Shown here piece by piece: positions 4,518 through 39,384 of a stretch of DNA of 40,422 nt; the first letter of the stretch is position 1; every line of letters starts with the position of its first letter. Under the pieces are notes generated by a model. It ran no database searches, was not told the origin of the DNA, and was given only the letters and a program-made list of their open reading frames with translations. Location: IMG/VR virus record IMGVR_UViG_3300029822_000026, positions 1-40,422 of that record; one strand, 5' to 3'. The position numbers were made by a program, and so were the translations under genes. This DNA comes from a virus (lineage: Duplodnaviria > Caudoviricetes).

Positions 4518-5012
4518 ATGTCAAAGAAAGTCAACACCAAGTCCGCCGTGACGACCGATGCGACCACGACCATCAGCCTGCAGATCAACCTCGAGCAGCA
4601 CAAGAACGTCAGCCTGCGGAAGCTGGCACAGGCAACCGAAATCAGCTACCCCCGCTTGCTGAAGGCTAGCAAGGCTCCCATCGCCGGCCAGCCGTACGAC
4701 CCCGAAGCAATCAACTACACCGCGTTGACAGAAGTCCTCGCTGACAAGCTCGATCAGATCAACTGGGCTGAACTCAATCAGCCGACCAATCAGCCGAACA
4801 GCTTCCTGATCAAAGACATGCAGCAGTTCGAGATCGGCACCAAAGTCTACCTTAGGCGTAACAACAAAAGGGGGTACGTAATCGCGTACAAGACCAACGA
4901 GCAGATCGTGCTTCAACTCGAAGGCACCGAAGAGCTCCTCTGCTGGCACCACAAGACATTCCTGCTGAACGGGCCCGCGCTCGAGCCGCGCGTAATTGCG
5001 GAAAAGAAGTAA
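4518..5012 (+). CDS. Putative HTH DNA-binding protein; paralog of 6340..6996
   Basis: AAAGGAG RBS. HTH-like segment VSLRKLAQATEISYPRL and a beta-rich C-terminal domain. Has its own promoter and terminator. Confidence 0.7.
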   Translation: MSKKVNTKSAVTTDATTTISLQINLEQHKNVSLRKLAQATEISYPRLLKASKAPIAGQPYDPEAINYTALTEVLADKLDQINWAELNQPTNQPNSFLIKDMQQFEIGTKVYLRRNNKRGYVIAYKTNEQIVLQLEGTEELLCWHHKTFLLNGPALEPRVIAEKK

Positions 5013-10991: not shown

Positions 10992-11061
10992 GAGCACTGA
11001 TATTTGAACTCAAAATTTTTATATCAGTGCTCTTGATATTTTTCTATATATACTATATAAT
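10992..11061 (+). promoter_or_regulatory. Promoter of the replication/modification operon with adjacent 12-bp inverted repeat
   Basis: GAGCACTGATAT (10992-11003) / ATATCAGTGCTC (11021-11032) abuts TTGATA (11033-11038), 17-bp spacer, TATAAT (11056-11061). Confidence 0.75.
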
Positions 11062-11105: not shown

Positions 11106-11876
11106 ATGAAAGTTCTTAACCTTGGTGATACCCAAGAAGGCAGAATTTTTGCCTTGATCTACGGACCTAGCGGCACAGGCAAAACTCACTTCGTGGGTAC
11201 TTTAGGCGCTCTAGGATCGGTGCTAGTAATAGACATTGATCAGGGCGCTACTACTCTAAAAACTGCTAAAGACCTAAAACCATATCTAAAAAATATCATT
11301 GCATGCGACTTCAAGCTGTTCAAAGATTTGAATTCTGCTGCACAGCTTATTGACGCAAATGATCCAAAAAGATGGAACGCGCACTTTAATCAGGGAGTTT
11401 CCGCAACCCAGCAGCGCGAATGGGTTACGAAGCCTTTTGATTGGATTGCGTGGGATACTTGGTCTGAAATTCAGTGGTACATGCTTGAAGAATTACGCTC
11501 TAAGGACACCGAAATGCGAGGTTCTGGTCTGGATTTCAGAAAGAACATTCAAATTCAACATTGGGGAATGATGACAGATCTTAATAAATTAGCAGTTCAA
11601 AATCTGCGGTCTTGCGAAGTAAACCAGCTGTTTGTTATGCAAGAAAAAGCAGACAAAGACGAGGTCACCGGTGCACGCTATGGTGGGCCTGCAATTCACG
11701 GTAAGATGGTTAACGAAATGCCTACATTTTTTGATGTAGTGATTCATAGTGGTACAGATTTACAAGGACAATTCGTAGCTACTACAAAAGCAAAAGGCTT
11801 GTGGCCAGCAAAAACCAGACTTGGCGAAGGGAAGGAATATAAGAATCCTACCGCCAAACTCGTTTTTGGTATATAG
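11106..11876 (+). CDS. Sak4-like ssDNA-annealing ATPase (AAA_24)
   Basis: LIYGPSGTGKT Walker A, IDIDQG, WDTWSE and FDVVIH. Sits between a Cas4-like nuclease and a DUF669 gene. Confidence 0.8.
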   Translation: MKVLNLGDTQEGRIFALIYGPSGTGKTHFVGTLGALGSVLVIDIDQGATTLKTAKDLKPYLKNIIACDFKLFKDLNSAAQLIDANDPKRWNAHFNQGVSATQQREWVTKPFDWIAWDTWSEIQWYMLEELRSKDTEMRGSGLDFRKNIQIQHWGMMTDLNKLAVQNLRSCEVNQLFVMQEKADKDEVTGARYGGPAIHGKMVNEMPTFFDVVIHSGTDLQGQFVATTKAKGLWPAKTRLGEGKEYKNPTAKLVFGI

Positions 11877-11880
11877 TGGA

Positions 11881-11916
11881 GGCTGTCACGGAAAACCAGC
11901 CAGAAAGGAAAACCGT
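11881..11916 (+). promoter_or_regulatory. Candidate preQ1-I riboswitch (H-type pseudoknot overlapping the RBS of the transporter)
   Basis: P1 GGCUG/CAGCC, loop UCACGGAAAAC, A-rich tail AGAAAGGAAAA, then CCGU complementary to loop ACGG. AUG follows immediately. Confidence 0.6.
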
Positions 11917-12609
11917 ATGTCTATTCCTAATGAACTGTTGTTGATCCTTACTCTACCAGTCTACTATGGGATGGCGGTGCTAGCGTACCGATTACTAGGA
12001 CGAGCAGGCATTTATGCCTTCACCGCATTCGCAACAATCGTCGCAAACATCGAGGTGCTAGCACTTGTCGAGGCCTTCGGGCTTCAAATGACTCTCGGAA
12101 ACGTTCTTTTTGCAACTATCTTTACTTGTTCGGAGATTCTGTGTGAAATGGAAAACGAGAAAGCTGCAAAGTTAACGGTTCCAATCAGTGCAGGAGTTAC
12201 AGTATTATTTGCAATCCTTGCACAATCTTGGACATGGTACACGACTGATGCTAGTACTACTATCCTAAGCTCATTCGCCAATGCTCCTAGAGTACTGATT
12301 GCTAGTTTGCTTGTAAACGTAATTTCTCAGTATGTTCAAATTTGGGTTTATGAGAGAATTTGGACAGTACAAAAGCGTTCCTTGGCAGGATTGTGGATAA
12401 GGTCTAATGGTGCTACACTAATTGCGCAGCTTGTAAATACTATACTATTCACAGTATTTGCATTTGCGGGCATCTTCGATACAACCACGCTTTGGCAAGT
12501 GATGCTAACAAGCTACACTATCTTTATTGTTACGTCCCTATTCGATACTCCTGTTCTCTATTTCACTCGGTGGCTCGAGCGCCGCTGGCCGAAATCAAAA
12601 GCGGCTTAA
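11917..12609 (+). CDS. yhhQ: Queuosine-precursor (preQ0/preQ1) transporter, YhhQ/VUT family
   Basis: 230-aa polytopic membrane protein with ANIEV, TLGNVLFATIF..SEIL.E, PRVLIASL, LWIRSNGATLIAQLVNT..F..FAF and DTP motifs. Start moved to ATG 11917. Confidence 0.9.
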   Translation: MSIPNELLLILTLPVYYGMAVLAYRLLGRAGIYAFTAFATIVANIEVLALVEAFGLQMTLGNVLFATIFTCSEILCEMENEKAAKLTVPISAGVTVLFAILAQSWTWYTTDASTTILSSFANAPRVLIASLLVNVISQYVQIWVYERIWTVQKRSLAGLWIRSNGATLIAQLVNTILFTVFAFAGIFDTTTLWQVMLTSYTIFIVTSLFDTPVLYFTRWLERRWPKSKAA

Positions 12610-12640: not shown

Positions 12641-12700
12641 TGTCAGCTAGCATCGGATGCAATGCACAATAAGTAGTAAGTTCGACTCTTACAGCTGACA
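12641..12700 (+). ncRNA. tRNA-like element lacking an anticodon arm
   Basis: 8-bp closing stem TGTCAGCT/AGCTGACA, D-like arm GCAT-cggatgca-ATGC, canonical T arm GTAAG-TTCGACT-CTTAC. Only ~10 nt lie where the anticodon and variable arms would be. Confidence 0.55.
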
Positions 12701-12793
12701 CTAGCCCAAACTGGGCGCAAAAATAAAAGTCGACGGACTCTAAGCGTAGAGGCTGACACCGGCGTAATCGGGTTTAACCTCGGAAGGATGGTA

Positions 12794-15906: not shown

Positions 15907-16227
15907 ATGGATAGACAATTAGTAGAAAAGTATCTAGACAAGTATCCAAAGTTTGAGCATTTCATAGGTGCTGGAACTATCAGCCTTAGAATGTCGAGAG
16001 AGATTTTGGATATCGACAGGTATTTAATGTATGATATTTTTAAGGAATTAGTAGTTGCAGGAGCTGTCACTGCAGTGGGTGGTAGTGCCTGGAGAGCTAC
16101 TAAGGAACTTAAATTACTATTAACAGATAGGAGGAACAAAACGCGTGGATTTAGATCTGATGCAAGCGGACATAAAAGCGCAGATAGCGCAAAGTCCAGT
16201 CCTAGCTCGACTGTCCAAAAACAGTAA
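15907..16227 (+). CDS. Stand-alone winged-helix-like protein
   Basis: GGAGGT RBS. Resembles the C-terminus of the upstream helicase. Confidence 0.6.
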   Translation: MDRQLVEKYLDKYPKFEHFIGAGTISLRMSREILDIDRYLMYDIFKELVVAGAVTAVGGSAWRATKELKLLLTDRRNKTRGFRSDASGHKSADSAKSSPSSTVQKQ

Positions 16228-16459
16228 ACTGCAACATGCGGTCTCAGGCTTGACGGAAGAGACTGGAGAGGTTGCGGGATTGTTAAAGCGCCAATGCTAT
16301 AAGCATCAAGAGATACCTCTCGAGCGTTGGGTCGATGAGCTTGGAGATGTGCTGTGGTATTGGTTAGCGACATGTGACGCACTTAATATCAATCCTAGTT
16401 CTGTATTCACTCACAATAGACTTAAATTGGAGGAGCGTTATGGACCATTTAGAACGTGA
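16145..16459 (+). CDS. MazG-like nucleotide pyrophosphohydrolase
   Basis: GLTEETGEV...DELGDVLWY...N..KL..RY. AGGAGG RBS and GTG start. Confidence 0.88.
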   Translation: MDLDLMQADIKAQIAQSPVLARLSKNSKLQHAVSGLTEETGEVAGLLKRQCYKHQEIPLERWVDELGDVLWYWLATCDALNINPSSVFTHNRLKLEERYGPFRT

Positions 16460-16853
16460 TTCGAAAAATGTTGTAGCATACGAAGGCGGCTCTTTGCGCG
16501 AACGCGTCCCTGGTAGAGGTGTGTATTCATGCATGCCGGCATGCAGCTTACGACGCCTAGCTCAGCAGTATGAGTATGGTAAGCTAAAGTACGGTCGCAA
16601 TGGCGAAGCATATACGGATGGCCTTCCAGTGAAAGACTGCATCGACAGCATGTTCAGGCATTTGGTAGCATACCTCGATGGTGATAACACAGAAGATCAT
16701 ATGGCTGCTATTGCATGGGGTAGTTTCGCAGTAATGTTTATGGAGGAGCACAAACCGCAATTCCAGGATGTCGTAGGTCGTAAGCGACTAAGCGCAAAGA
16801 GAGGCGATTTCAATTACATCCAGAAGAGATTAAAGGATGGTAAGCTAATATGA
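16440..16853 (+). CDS. dATP/dGTP diphosphohydrolase-domain protein (DUF5664)
   Basis: YG..KYG.N, DS.FRHL, EDH.AAIAW. Start moved to ATG 16440 after GGAGGAG. Confidence 0.82.
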   Translation: MDHLERDSKNVVAYEGGSLRERVPGRGVYSCMPACSLRRLAQQYEYGKLKYGRNGEAYTDGLPVKDCIDSMFRHLVAYLDGDNTEDHMAAIAWGSFAVMFMEEHKPQFQDVVGRKRLSAKRGDFNYIQKRLKDGKLI

Positions 16854-17614
16854 TTAAAAGATTTCACGAAGCTCCAAAAAGCATCTTCAAAGACGTGCAG
16901 CTACTAACTGATGGAGATTATGCATTAGTGCATCTATTTGAGACTGACCCGGAATACTTCGACATGTTCAAAAAAGCAGTCGCGATGGGTCGTGAAGTAA
17001 TTCTCGATAACTCGATTTTCGAGCTCGGTGAGGCGTTCGAGTCAACTCGATTCGTTGATTGGGTACTGAAGTTGTTACCTACATGGTATATTGTTCCTGA
17101 CTGCTTAGACAATATGGAACAAACGATTTACAATATGGTGGATTTTGTTCTCAATTACGGGACCTTACCTAGTAAGCGAATCGGCGTGGTCCAGGGTAAG
17201 ACCGAACAAGAGTTACGTGAATGTTATCGTGCGCTGCATCCGTACTGTGACATGATTGCATTTAGCTTCAACTCGATTCCATTTGGAGAAACTGTGCAGC
17301 AGCAAGCCTTGGAACGTCCGAGATTCATATTCAGAATGGCAGCTGATGGCATCTTAGATCCTCATATGCCACATCACCTGTTGGGTTGCGCATTACCTCA
17401 AGAGATGCTTTCGTACAGACATCCATGCATCTATTCTATGGATACCAGTAATCCAGTGGTGCATGGATTGAAGGGTATTTCGTATAATCAGTATGGACTG
17501 GATCGAAAAGAAAGCGAGAAGCTTTGCGATCTGATTGATGCAGTACCAACACACCTAGAATGGCAAATTATCAGATATAACATAAGCGCCTTTAGGAGGT
17601 TCTGTAATGAGTAG
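16850..17614 (+). CDS. dpdA: TGT-fold 7-deazaguanine transglycosylase (DpdA-like, probably DpdA3 type)
   Basis: TGT-like motif series ILDNS.FE, VPD, GVVQG, HHLLG and SMDTS, supported by context (yhhQ, formyltransferase, dNTPases). Confidence 0.75.
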   Translation: MIKRFHEAPKSIFKDVQLLTDGDYALVHLFETDPEYFDMFKKAVAMGREVILDNSIFELGEAFESTRFVDWVLKLLPTWYIVPDCLDNMEQTIYNMVDFVLNYGTLPSKRIGVVQGKTEQELRECYRALHPYCDMIAFSFNSIPFGETVQQQALERPRFIFRMAADGILDPHMPHHLLGCALPQEMLSYRHPCIYSMDTSNPVVHGLKGISYNQYGLDRKESEKLCDLIDAVPTHLEWQIIRYNISAFRRFCNE

Positions 17615-18131
17615 ATGGATTGCGCTGTACTCACAGACTGGCGATGAATTGCGGAAATTGCAAAAGCTATTAAACGGAAGAGCGCCAGATATGGTACTGA
17701 CTACCAATCCAAAAAAATATGTAGATTGCACACGAACTGCGCGAGAGTTACACTATCAAGTTGAGGCAGTACTGTTGGAGCAACTGCGGCCTGGTGATAT
17801 TGTTACTCTGCATGGATATCTGTTCATACTAAGCGATAAGGTGTTATCTATTCCTGGCGTAAAGTTTTACAACGGCCATCCAGGACTAGTAACTCTGTAT
17901 CCTGAATTAAAAGGTAAAGATCCACAGCAAAAGATATTCAATAGTTTCTATCCAGTTGTTGGATGCATTATACATGAAGTTACCAGTGAAGTTGACTCCG
18001 GTCCTATTTTAATGACCTCTCAAATTACTGTAGATTTCGGATTTTATACGCGTTCGTTTGATCAAGTAATTAACGACATCAAATACATTTCACTCGGATT
18101 GTGGCGAGTATTTCTGGAAGGAGTATTATAA
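17607..18131 (+). CDS. PurN-like N10-formyl-THF formyltransferase (DpdN-like)
   Basis: TLHGYLFIL, NGHPG, ELKGKDP and IHEVTSEVDSGPIL carry the formyltransferase N/H/D catalytic residues. Overlaps the dpdA stop. Confidence 0.82.
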   Translation: MSRWIALYSQTGDELRKLQKLLNGRAPDMVLTTNPKKYVDCTRTARELHYQVEAVLLEQLRPGDIVTLHGYLFILSDKVLSIPGVKFYNGHPGLVTLYPELKGKDPQQKIFNSFYPVVGCIIHEVTSEVDSGPILMTSQITVDFGFYTRSFDQVINDIKYISLGLWRVFLEGVL

Positions 18132-23860: not shown

Positions 23861-25675
23861 CTACGCCCTCCTTAAATATTTATCGGAGCACCACCCCCGG
23901 ACGATTGGAGCTTGATTATGCAGTACTGTATCTACCCATCCATTGTTAGAGTCTAGTACGATACATTCTTCACCCGCAGATAGTTTTCCAATAGATACGA
24001 AAGAGGTTCCAGGACCTTCGCGTACATTAGTGTAGCTTGCACCTGCATATTTGTAAATTGCAGGAAGATAAGTTTCCGGCTCAGGCTCGGGCTCCGCTGG
24101 AGGAATAGGTTCCGCAATTAAGCCGCGCAATGAGTCCCAGATATATTCGTCTACGATACCATTGATCGTAACGCCTATACTCATCTGATAAGCACGCAAA
24201 GCCATATCAGTATTTGGACCAAATGAGCCATCAATTTTTCCAGGACTAAAACCTTTTTCCAGAAGTAATCCTTGAAGTTCTTTGACATCATCTCCCCGCA
24301 TTAGCGGATCAGCGAGATGCAAAACTCGCTGGCTAGGTTGCGGAATCTCTACCTCCCCAAGAAGAGCCGCCCGGAAATAATTCATGTCTATACTGGGGCA
24401 AAGTGTGGGGTAAAGCTTCCCAGTCGGCTTACCATTCGAGTATAAGGGGACCTCATTGTGGCCGAGTACATTCTTAGGCTGCAAATTGTACATTGCCATC
24501 AGGTCCTTTGTAAGACGAATCGCTGCCTGGAATTGCTTGGTGGTAGGGAGATCGCTGTTACGCATATCTCCATCTAATGCGATCGAGATGCTCCTTTGAT
24601 TTGCATTGTTAGTTGTACTGTCCTTCACAGCACCATGGCTATAGTTATATCCGCGTCCAAGATAGATTGTACCATCTTGGAGCACGAGATACGAATATCC
24701 GACGCCCTTATGTCCATCTTTTTCAATCTTGCTTTTTTGCAACGCTGCCCACTTTGCAGGAGTACCGTAGTTACCCACAGTGTGATGTATTTGAATATGA
24801 TCGGTTGTTTTACGAATATTACCTTTTCCTTTAGGCCAAACAAGACCCGTATCTATAGCGTAAGCTACCTCTTTCATGGATAAACTCTCCTTTGGTTTGA
24901 TTTGTAAGAAACCCCATCCAGTATGTGGATCAAAGCCTACTGGAGTTAAATCCTGTGCAAAACTTTTTAACTTAGTAAATAAGTCTGGTTCAGATAATTG
25001 CAAATTTTGAGATAGTACAAGTGCCGCTTTTCCTGCTACATTAGGTTGTGCCGCAGACGTGCCATCGTATAGAGCGGGTTTTCCATCCAAACCTATCACA
25101 TCTACATCACGCCCTAAATCCGCAAAGTCCATTTCGTTATGCCAAGTAGAAAAATCAGCCGTTGTACCATCACGATTTAAAGCTGCAACACAGATAGGTT
25201 CAGGCCAGCATCCAGGATAACGATTCAAGCGTTCCTCGCCATCATTGCCAGCAGCTACTATGACAGGTACGTTTAGAGCAACAAGTTCTTTGATAAGAGA
25301 ATGAGTTTCTTCGATACCAGCACACAGATATGACATACTAACAATGTATCTATTTGCAGTATCGATTTTTACTCTACGTGTTATGTCTGCAAGTATCCAG
25401 TTTATCATAGGTCCTTGAACGCTTAAATCTTGCGTATATCCATTATACACTAAAATTTTGGCCTCCGGACACCACCAGTTAAGCACCGAAGCTGTTTTAG
25501 TTCCATGAGAATCGATAGGCATTAGAGCATTAAAATGCCCAGAGATTAGCTGTGAACCAAAGGGCACCAGCGTGGACACGCCCGTGTCAATAGACGCAAT
25601 AATTATATTTTGTCCTTTGATACCTTGTGTATGGAAGGAGTCTTTGATCTGTTGATTAGTTATTTTAATATCCAT
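23861..25675 (-). CDS. Endolysin: S8 subtilase + amidase_2 + PG-binding + SH3b
   Basis: S8 motifs IDTG, HGT, AAGNDG and GTS. Amidase motifs IHHT, GY.Y, SI.IAL.G, GHNE and CP. PG-binding GDDVKELQ..L...GF..G.IDG.FG..T. SH3b NVREGPGT. Confidence 0.88.
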   Translation of the reverse strand: MDIKITNQQIKDSFHTQGIKGQNIIIASIDTGVSTLVPFGSQLISGHFNALMPIDSHGTKTASVLNWWCPEAKILVYNGYTQDLSVQGPMINWILADITRRVKIDTANRYIVSMSYLCAGIEETHSLIKELVALNVPVIVAAGNDGEERLNRYPGCWPEPICVAALNRDGTTADFSTWHNEMDFADLGRDVDVIGLDGKPALYDGTSAAQPNVAGKAALVLSQNLQLSEPDLFTKLKSFAQDLTPVGFDPHTGWGFLQIKPKESLSMKEVAYAIDTGLVWPKGKGNIRKTTDHIQIHHTVGNYGTPAKWAALQKSKIEKDGHKGVGYSYLVLQDGTIYLGRGYNYSHGAVKDSTTNNANQRSISIALDGDMRNSDLPTTKQFQAAIRLTKDLMAMYNLQPKNVLGHNEVPLYSNGKPTGKLYPTLCPSIDMNYFRAALLGEVEIPQPSQRVLHLADPLMRGDDVKELQGLLLEKGFSPGKIDGSFGPNTDMALRAYQMSIGVTINGIVDEYIWDSLRGLIAEPIPPAEPEPEPETYLPAIYKYAGASYTNVREGPGTSFVSIGKLSAGEECIVLDSNNGWVDTVLHNQAPIVRGWCSDKYLRRA

Positions 25676-39306: not shown

Positions 39307-39325
39307 TTTTCCTATCTCCCTGCTA

Positions 39326-39384
39326 AGTTTTTTTAAGTGGTTACTGCCACTCGCAGTGCCTATTTGTAAGTCTTAGGCTTGACT
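39326..39384 (-). promoter_or_regulatory. Structured leader of the scaffold gene (tandem hairpin/pseudoknots)
   Basis: Minus strand: AGUC-aagccuaa-GACU-uacaaa-UAGGC, then AGUGG-caguaa-CCACU-uaaaaaaa-cu. Confidence 0.45.

Follow-up and report, generated by a model that had tools for sequence, protein, structure and literature searches.

A 36-nt RNA element with every signature of a type II class I preQ1 (preQ1-I) riboswitch that can be tested by sequence occupies positions 11881–11916 of the 40,422-nt stretch of phage DNA analysed here (the window). The element probably forms an H-type pseudoknot with the pocket bases of that aptamer type, and would most plausibly serve as a translational OFF switch acting on the YhhQ importer alone. 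From its sequence and surroundings, we infer both preQ1 as the ligand and OFF as the direction of control.

The sak4 stop codon (11874–11876) is separated from the yhhQ AUG (11917) by a 40-nt gap, 11877–11916. The initial annotation had described this gap as filled almost completely by GGCUG–loop–CAGCC–L3–CCGU and then the AUG, and the sequence is as described; the 5-bp P1 closed by G-C, the loop beginning with UC, the A-rich L3, and the 4-bp P2 that it listed are likewise all present (Table 1). The loop between the two P1 strands, UCACGGAAAAC, spans 11886–11896, with C11896 as its last base. The Shine–Dalgarno sequence (SD), AAAGGA at 11904–11909, lies inside L3, 7 nt from the AUG. This placement, together with a P2 ending just before the AUG, had been flagged as atypical; the layout is real and is one of three expression platforms found in the family. 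The yhhQ start is supported by homologues, which begin at the same NELL motif.

Table 1. Features of the window discussed in the text
Feature	Position	Strand	Remarks
Sigma70-type promoter-like site TTGATA-17-TATAAT, upstream of sak4	11033–11061	+	11/12 consensus matches; consensus only
sak4-like ssDNA annealing protein	11106–11876	+	PHROG 124, E 1.4e-27
P1 5′ strand GGCUG	11881–11885	+	G11885 is the pocket-floor G (G5 equivalent)
L1	11886–11887	+	U11886 is the invariant U6; C11887 is C7, equivalent to Tte C7 (A, G, or U in relatives)
P2 5′ strand ACGG	11888–11891	+	CCAG in most relatives; CCGG in L096
L2 AAAA plus C11896, the predicted specificity base	11892–11896	+	AC before the P1 3′ strand is a type II signature
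P1 3′ strand CAGCC	11897–11901	+	
L3 AGAAAGGAAAA, with SD and terminal AAAA run	11902–11912	+	11 nt, purine-rich
P2 3′ strand CCGU	11913–11916	+	Final base immediately precedes the AUG
yhhQ/QPTR queuosine-precursor transporter, 230 aa	11917–12609	+	Pfam Vut_1, 97.5 bits; TIGR00697, 113.5 bits (cut-off 50.95)
UUCCU, codons 3–4 of yhhQ	11924–11928	+	Predicted weak hairpin with AGGAA 11906–11910, about −3 kcal/mol (ViennaRNA)
DpdA3 DNA guanine transglycosylase homologue	16850–17614	+	49.6% identity over 253 aa to Flavobacterium phage immuto_2-6A DpdA
DpdN-like formyltransferase	17607–18131	+	Pfam Formyl_trans_N; 37% identity, E 1e-35, to YP_010114479.1

The promoter-like site upstream of sak4 is likely to start the sak4–yhhQ transcript, and no terminator-like site was found on the plus strand between 9500 and 13400; a mid-operon position for the element is therefore plausible. 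Several further features were observed around it. Downstream of yhhQ, at 12642–12700 (+), lies a tRNA-like mini element with a 7-bp acceptor-like stem and a T-arm carrying a UUCGACU loop, the two being separated by 27 nt. Neither ARAGORN nor Rfam calls this element, which is possibly a processing signal; similar minis occupy the same slot in the sibling phage loci L323 (ending ACCA) and L341, and many siblings have a true tRNA-Gln or tRNA-Leu. The leader of the ssb gene (DUF669), at 12726–12793 (+), contains two hairpins followed by GGAAGGA, is conserved by eye in L324, L338, L341, and L325, and has no convincing Rfam match; it is a candidate cis-regulatory RNA. Elsewhere in the window, an endolysin-like ORF (23861–25675, −) fuses a subtilase (S8) to amidase, peptidoglycan-binding, and SH3 domains.

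Scans of viral contigs with YhhQ retrieved no relatives. Sibling phage loci (n = 29) were instead retrieved via Sak4, at 50–65% identity, and represent about ten lineages rather than independent samples. A Vut_1/YhhQ gene lies between sak4 and ssb in 21 of the 29, and Pfam confirms Vut_1 in all eight of the sibling proteins scanned. The model search described below finds a homologous aptamer in 19 of these 21 loci and in none of the other eight. Before Vut_1, L343 (10718–10777) and L344 instead show, by eye, a 7-bp hairpin with a longer loop, an A-rich tail, and an SD, an arrangement that the model does not match. Among the eight loci with no Vut_1 gene in the slot, five have one further downstream, with no model match there, and three have QueC, QueD, QueE, and FolE. 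The aptamer sits before three separate Vut_1 clades and has thus been kept through transporter replacement. The sak4 stop codon precedes P1 by 4 nt in the window and by 5 nt in L322 and L325; where the spacing extends to 117–268 nt, the element stays with Vut_1 and not with sak4. Two other features of the sibling loci were observed. A short-chain dehydrogenase gene, a candidate salvage enzyme, follows Vut_1 in 16 of the 21 loci (for example, L325 9282–9941) but does not do so in the window. Downstream of sak4 in L326 (7760–7870), L330, L331, and L335 lies a conserved non-coding stretch of about 100 nt that is GC-rich, with no Rfam match in L326, L331, or L335.

The window YhhQ groups with bacterial proteins of 53–57% identity (100/100 support). 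Three of the nearest bacterial loci were read: L014 and L096 (56–57% identity) carry the same aptamer family, and L097 lacks it. In clostridial yhhQ operons at a greater distance, type I aptamers occur in 18 of 27 loci.

Type II preQ1-I aptamers are characterised by AC before the P1 3′ strand, a G-C floor, and an A-rich L3 (PMC11625349). In the window, A11895–C11896 stands before the P1 3′ strand, P1, at 5 bp within the 5–6 bp of the type, is closed at the pocket floor by the invariant G5–C17 pair, U11886 directly follows the P1 5′ strand, and P2 supplies a G-C ceiling through an invariant G11–C pair; the gene downstream is a queuosine-salvage gene, as is usual for the type. AAAA precedes P2 in all 24 elements, and L3 of the window is A-rich, though its 5′ part holds the GG of the SD, which is atypical. 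Across 11 distinct sequences, G5, U6, C9, G11, A15, C16, and C17 are invariant. The window also has the C7 equivalent, a base that in Thermoanaerobacter tengcongensis (Tte) forms a C7-G11-C30 triple with the G-C ceiling (PMC11625349, Fig. 2 legend). Type I aptamers have UU after P1, UC before the P1 3′ strand, and a C interrupting the A-tail (PMC11625349), whereas the window has UC, AC, and an uninterrupted AAAA. It also lacks the type III signature: UU at the start, a short loop rich in pyrimidines, and an AAGG SD paired in P2 (PMC11625349).

In the alignment of the 11 distinct sequences, every one of the 99 helix cells is paired (55/55 in P1, 44/44 in P2). Two-sided changes occur at five of the nine pairs—three of five in P1 and two of four in P2, the P2 variation coming from the window and L096 alone. 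No shuffle out of 500 matches this pairing and covariation and slid registers pair at 5%–51%, albeit in an alignment that was cut to end at P2 and hence leans toward structure. Compared with the commonest form, the window differs at two P2 pairs, and both differences are compensated (C-G to A-U and A-U to G-C). Covariation, which the initial annotation had named as a check for the regions upstream of homologous phage yhhQ genes, is found in both helices, and its aptamer-type reading is supported by conservation, by compensatory changes in P1 and P2, by the tie to sibling Vut_1/YhhQ genes, and by the type II pocket bases.

The Rfam PreQ1 model, named as another check, went the other way: RF00522 gives no match at E ≤ 10 within 11700–12100, the 39-bit threshold not being reached. 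The test is insensitive here, since RF00522 also misses the canonical sibling L322, the bacterial L014, and 15 type I-like aptamers found by descriptor in the 20 loci scanned. Pair probabilities for P1 are 0.64–1.0, varying with the flank included, and the folding energy is unremarkable (z = −0.73) in ViennaRNA, whose model has no pseudoknots. A type II descriptor that specifies 4 bp for P2, written with the element already known, matches exactly once over both strands of the window, whereas 200 dinucleotide shuffles give 0.01 matches per window. A covariance model trained on eight relatives, with the window excluded, ranks 11879–11917 top in the window (17.9 bits, rough E 8e-4). A second match to this model, at 4609–4633 (−), was set aside because it has neither the AC-C nor the A-tail. 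A weak RF00522 match at 39318–39356 (−) was likewise rejected as a preQ1 site, because no U follows P1, the loop is 8 nt long, and the site stands before the scaffold gene. The sole Rfam match in the window at gathering score is a GP20-b RNA at 39324–39384 (−), before the scaffold gene (41.6 bits); against the PreQ1 model, its 3′ hairpin together with the A-tail reaches 22.8 bits, a likeness of two families that may be superficial.

A general descriptor applied to 500 query-enriched loci (3.55 Mb) yields 12 distinct sequences, all before Vut_1 or a radical-SAM–Vut_1 operon. A pattern for the long-L3 form described below gives 20 matches, of which 11 have an intact P1, all upstream of the clade's Vut_1 gene, and nine do not; in bacterial genomes, the same pattern gives 3 of 401 versus 8 for reversed-pattern controls, none with P1. 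A canonical pattern recovers G5, U6, and a full P1 in 3 of the 120 matches listed (about 1100 estimated), and both matches to an exact-like pattern are unrelated. The covariance model matches in 7 of 151 bacterial genomes, comprising the training element and six chance-looking matches, and finds nothing in the GenBank phage loci phiFN37, CDKM15, MS1, and immuto_2-6A or in the nine loci searched of 12 with DpdA3. A type I pattern has a paired P1 in 9 of 120 viral-contig loci among the matches listed; by eye, five of the nine resemble tRNA ends, three resemble type I aptamers, two of these three beside integrase-like genes, and one is unclear. Type I preQ1 aptamers on viral contigs at L179 665–705 and L205 (about 1500) adjoin the 3′ ends of ORFs judged by eye to be integrase-like, an arrangement that suggests integration beside a host riboswitch.

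The family combines one aptamer with three expression platforms. Each of the 24 elements has, once within 70 nt of P1, an A-run and directly after it a perfect complement to loop nucleotides 8–11, an arrangement found at 0.7% of random window positions. In the canonical platform, present in 10 sibling loci and L014, L3 is 8–13 nt long and P2 ends in the GG of GGAGG, the SD following P2. In the window platform, L3 is 11 nt long and contains the SD, and P2 runs up to the AUG; this layout is seen in one sequence, to which a relative, P0002, is 87% identical. The long-L3 platform, with an L3 of 31–38 nt, occurs in 9 of the 19 sibling elements, in the pattern-found L351 and L359, and in the bacterial L096, where the element precedes a radical-SAM gene upstream of yhhQ and P2 is CCGG/CCGG. 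The long L3 encloses the SD, the AUG, and a predicted start-codon hairpin of 4–6 bp (in all eight elements folded), and the A-run and P2 strand are read as the codons Lys-Thr-Gly, 16–25 nt into the reading frame. An SD spacing of 6–8 nt and the frame argue that the enclosed AUG is the true start. A reading in which these elements have lost P2 was rejected, because both the A-run and the complement lie within the ORF. In the known type II platform, either the first SD bases lie in P2 or a terminator follows; 10 of the 19 siblings and L014 have this arrangement and the window does not, and its element is thus a variant.

The proposed mechanism runs as follows. When preQ1 is low, P2 and L3 would be loose, and the 30S subunit could load on AAAGGA–7 nt–AUG. 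When preQ1 is high, the ligand would pair with C11896 and stack between the G11885–C11897 floor and the G11891–C11913 ceiling, where U11886 and A11912 would read it. The ligand-bound knot would then pin L3, and with it the SD, along P1 and lock the spacer between SD and AUG into P2, blocking yhhQ initiation and leaving the replication genes on the same transcript unaffected. In long-L3 siblings, SD and start codon alike would end up within this knot, which would close on the Lys-Thr-Gly codons. The Can preQ1-I pseudoknot is reported to repress as a steric block even with as much as 24 nt between it and the start codon (PMC10018353); a knot in contact with the AUG should therefore block initiation, if formed. 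Several points count against an OFF switch. The sak4 stop codon is 4 nt from P1, and terminating ribosomes may therefore melt the aptamer. The predicted hairpin between the SD (AGGAA) and codons 3–4 (UUCCU) would compete with L3 and P2, and so with the knot. In addition, five sibling Vut_1 genes located elsewhere have no model match, L097 lacks the element, and the precise layout of the window occurs in one sequence.

The imported base would have a use in phage DNA. DpdA3 is described as replacing all guanines, and immuto_2-6A DNA as holding fdPreQ1; YP_010114479.1 is DpdN of that phage, the proposed formyltransferase acting on preQ1 (10.1101/2023.04.13.536721). The DpdA3 homologue of the window has full-length homology to the DpdA3 proteins of immuto_2-6A and a Campylobacter phage, and a TGT-like fold: its AlphaFold model (pLDDT 83.6) matches TGT/DpdA folds (E 2.7e-10), a single-sequence fold being poor (pLDDT 44) and a PDB sequence search blank. 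It is the likely consumer of the imported base. The phage would import preQ1 or take it from the host, DpdA3 would insert it into phage DNA, and DpdN would formylate it to fdPreQ1, as in immuto_2-6A. Neither QueC, QueD, QueE, QueF, nor FolE was found in the window, by Pfam over 81 ORFs (of 125 listed, the remainder being mostly short overlapping frames) or by tblastn over its whole length; the record is about 94% complete, and que genes could thus lie in the missing part. Of the 21 sibling loci, 17 contain DpdA3 and the remaining four end earlier; the stretches examined contain no que genes. Phages with DpdA but no synthesis genes are known, some with YhhQ (PMC6884629). Given these precedents and the presence of DpdA3 and DpdN without que genes in the window, we infer that preQ1 for DNA modification is supplied by salvage. 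MazG and dATP/dGTP diphosphohydrolase genes lie directly before dpdA3 (16145–16853, +), beside what would be a post-replicative guanine-replacement system.

For the clade of ~40–45 kb phages as a whole, we lean slightly towards a broader proposal: that a working preQ1 riboswitch subfamily meters import of the base that DpdA3 and DpdN write into DNA, with the translation start moved into the aptamer. The window has the SD in L3. The siblings with a long L3, like one bacterial operon, have the start codon there as well, so that the pocket would be completed by Lys-Thr-Gly codons and the aptamer would overlap its own reading frame.

Other readings of the same evidence can be weighed against a preQ1-dependent OFF switch. 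It is unlikely, albeit conceivable, that the fold senses another ligand (preQ0, queuine, or a related 7-deazaguanine) or has another output, namely ON control through removal of the competing SD hairpin, or else an action through polymerase pausing. In favour of another ligand, the Tte type II aptamer prefers preQ1 over preQ0 only 17-fold (PMC10622847), and QPTR substrates differ between species (PMC11130926). All pocket bases fit preQ1-I type II, however, and DpdN is proposed to formylate preQ1 (10.1101/2023.04.13.536721). As to output, the ligand-free fold pairs the window SD with UUCCU, and an AUG hairpin is predicted in each of the eight long-L3 elements tested; ON control nevertheless fits poorly, since the knotted state holds the SD–AUG spacer, or the AUG itself, inside the pseudoknot, and no terminator-like site follows the element. 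That the element merely resembles a preQ1 aptamer by chance is scarcely credible. The absence of an Rfam match and the unremarkable folding score are what such a resemblance would give, but so few descriptor matches arise in shuffled windows, and the top rank in the leave-one-out model and the covarying homologues also speak against it.

A translational pseudoknot that needs no ligand—a fixed brake, a device coupling yhhQ to sak4, or a binding site for a phage protein such as DpdA3 or Sak4—would suit an element abutting both the sak4 stop and the yhhQ start, yet it is improbable: the unpaired pocket bases (U6, A15, C16, and the A-run of L3) vary little or not at all, the window has a single copy of the element, and it is found only before queuosine-salvage genes, bacteria included, staying with Vut_1 and not with sak4 at the longer spacings. 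Similarly improbable is a relic, that is, a host riboswitch captured along with yhhQ that no longer switches in this phage. Bacterial relatives of the window YhhQ do carry the same aptamer family, the five sibling Vut_1 genes mentioned above manage without it, and throttling import looks costly, given that a DpdA3 replacing all guanines would need about 18,000 bases per genome copy. Against decay stand the intact pocket, the compensation of every P1 and P2 change in the window, and the persistence of the aptamer across three transporter clades in one genomic slot.

The modification genes most resemble those of immuto_2-6A, with DpdA3 (49.6%) and DpdN (37%) encoded near a family A DNA polymerase; unlike that phage, the window has no synthesis genes and has YhhQ behind an aptamer, which predicts a salvage-only route to fdPreQ1. 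Among phage riboswitches, c-di-GMP-I riboswitches have been described from C. difficile prophages, glutamine aptamers from cyanophages (PMC5473149), and a glutamine riboswitch from phage Melnitz (PMC9004378). The window element would be, like these, a metabolite-sensing RNA on a phage genome; they have other ligands and folds, and the accessible text of those reports ties none of them to the provision of a precursor for DNA modification (PMC5473149, PMC9004378). The present family would link RNA-level metabolite sensing to anti-restriction DNA modification. A limited literature search found no published phage preQ1 riboswitch and no form with the SD or AUG in L3, although the alignments of McCown et al. 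2014 could include some of the sequences, and the accessible part of a review of preQ1 riboswitches does not mention phages (PMC11625349). Surveys describe metabolite riboswitches as rare in phages (PMC5473149, PMC9004378); this family escapes Rfam, and that rarity may therefore be partly a detection artefact.

The E. coli yhhQ type III riboswitch (PDB 8fza; PMC10622847) controls yhhQ translation, as the window element would, and shares with it AC at the specificity base, an SD within the fold, and a variable L3. Type III starts with UU and has a short loop rich in pyrimidines, the first A of its SD reads the ligand, and the remainder of the SD forms P2 (PMC10622847). The window element instead starts with UC, its loop is 11 nt long and purine-rich, and its SD comes before the terminal A-run. 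The translational Tte type II riboswitch (PDB 3q50; PMC11625349) is likewise an H-type pseudoknot with a 5-bp P1 closed by G-C. It too has a U directly following P1, AC ahead of the 3′ strand of P1, an A-rich L3, and a G-C ceiling with the C7 equivalent, and it too precedes a queuosine-precursor transporter. In Tte, the first two SD bases lie in P2, after L3, and P2 has two canonical pairs only. The window P2, in contrast, has four Watson–Crick pairs, contains no SD, and ends at the AUG, with the SD in L3; moreover, the element lies on a phage, between two genes, and 9 of the 19 sibling phage elements depart further from Tte, with an L3 of 31–37 nt in which SD, AUG, and a small hairpin all lie. 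The family thus offers a natural series built on one aptamer—SD after the knot, SD inside it, and both SD and AUG inside it—against which steric-block and SD-pairing models of preQ1-I repression can be set.
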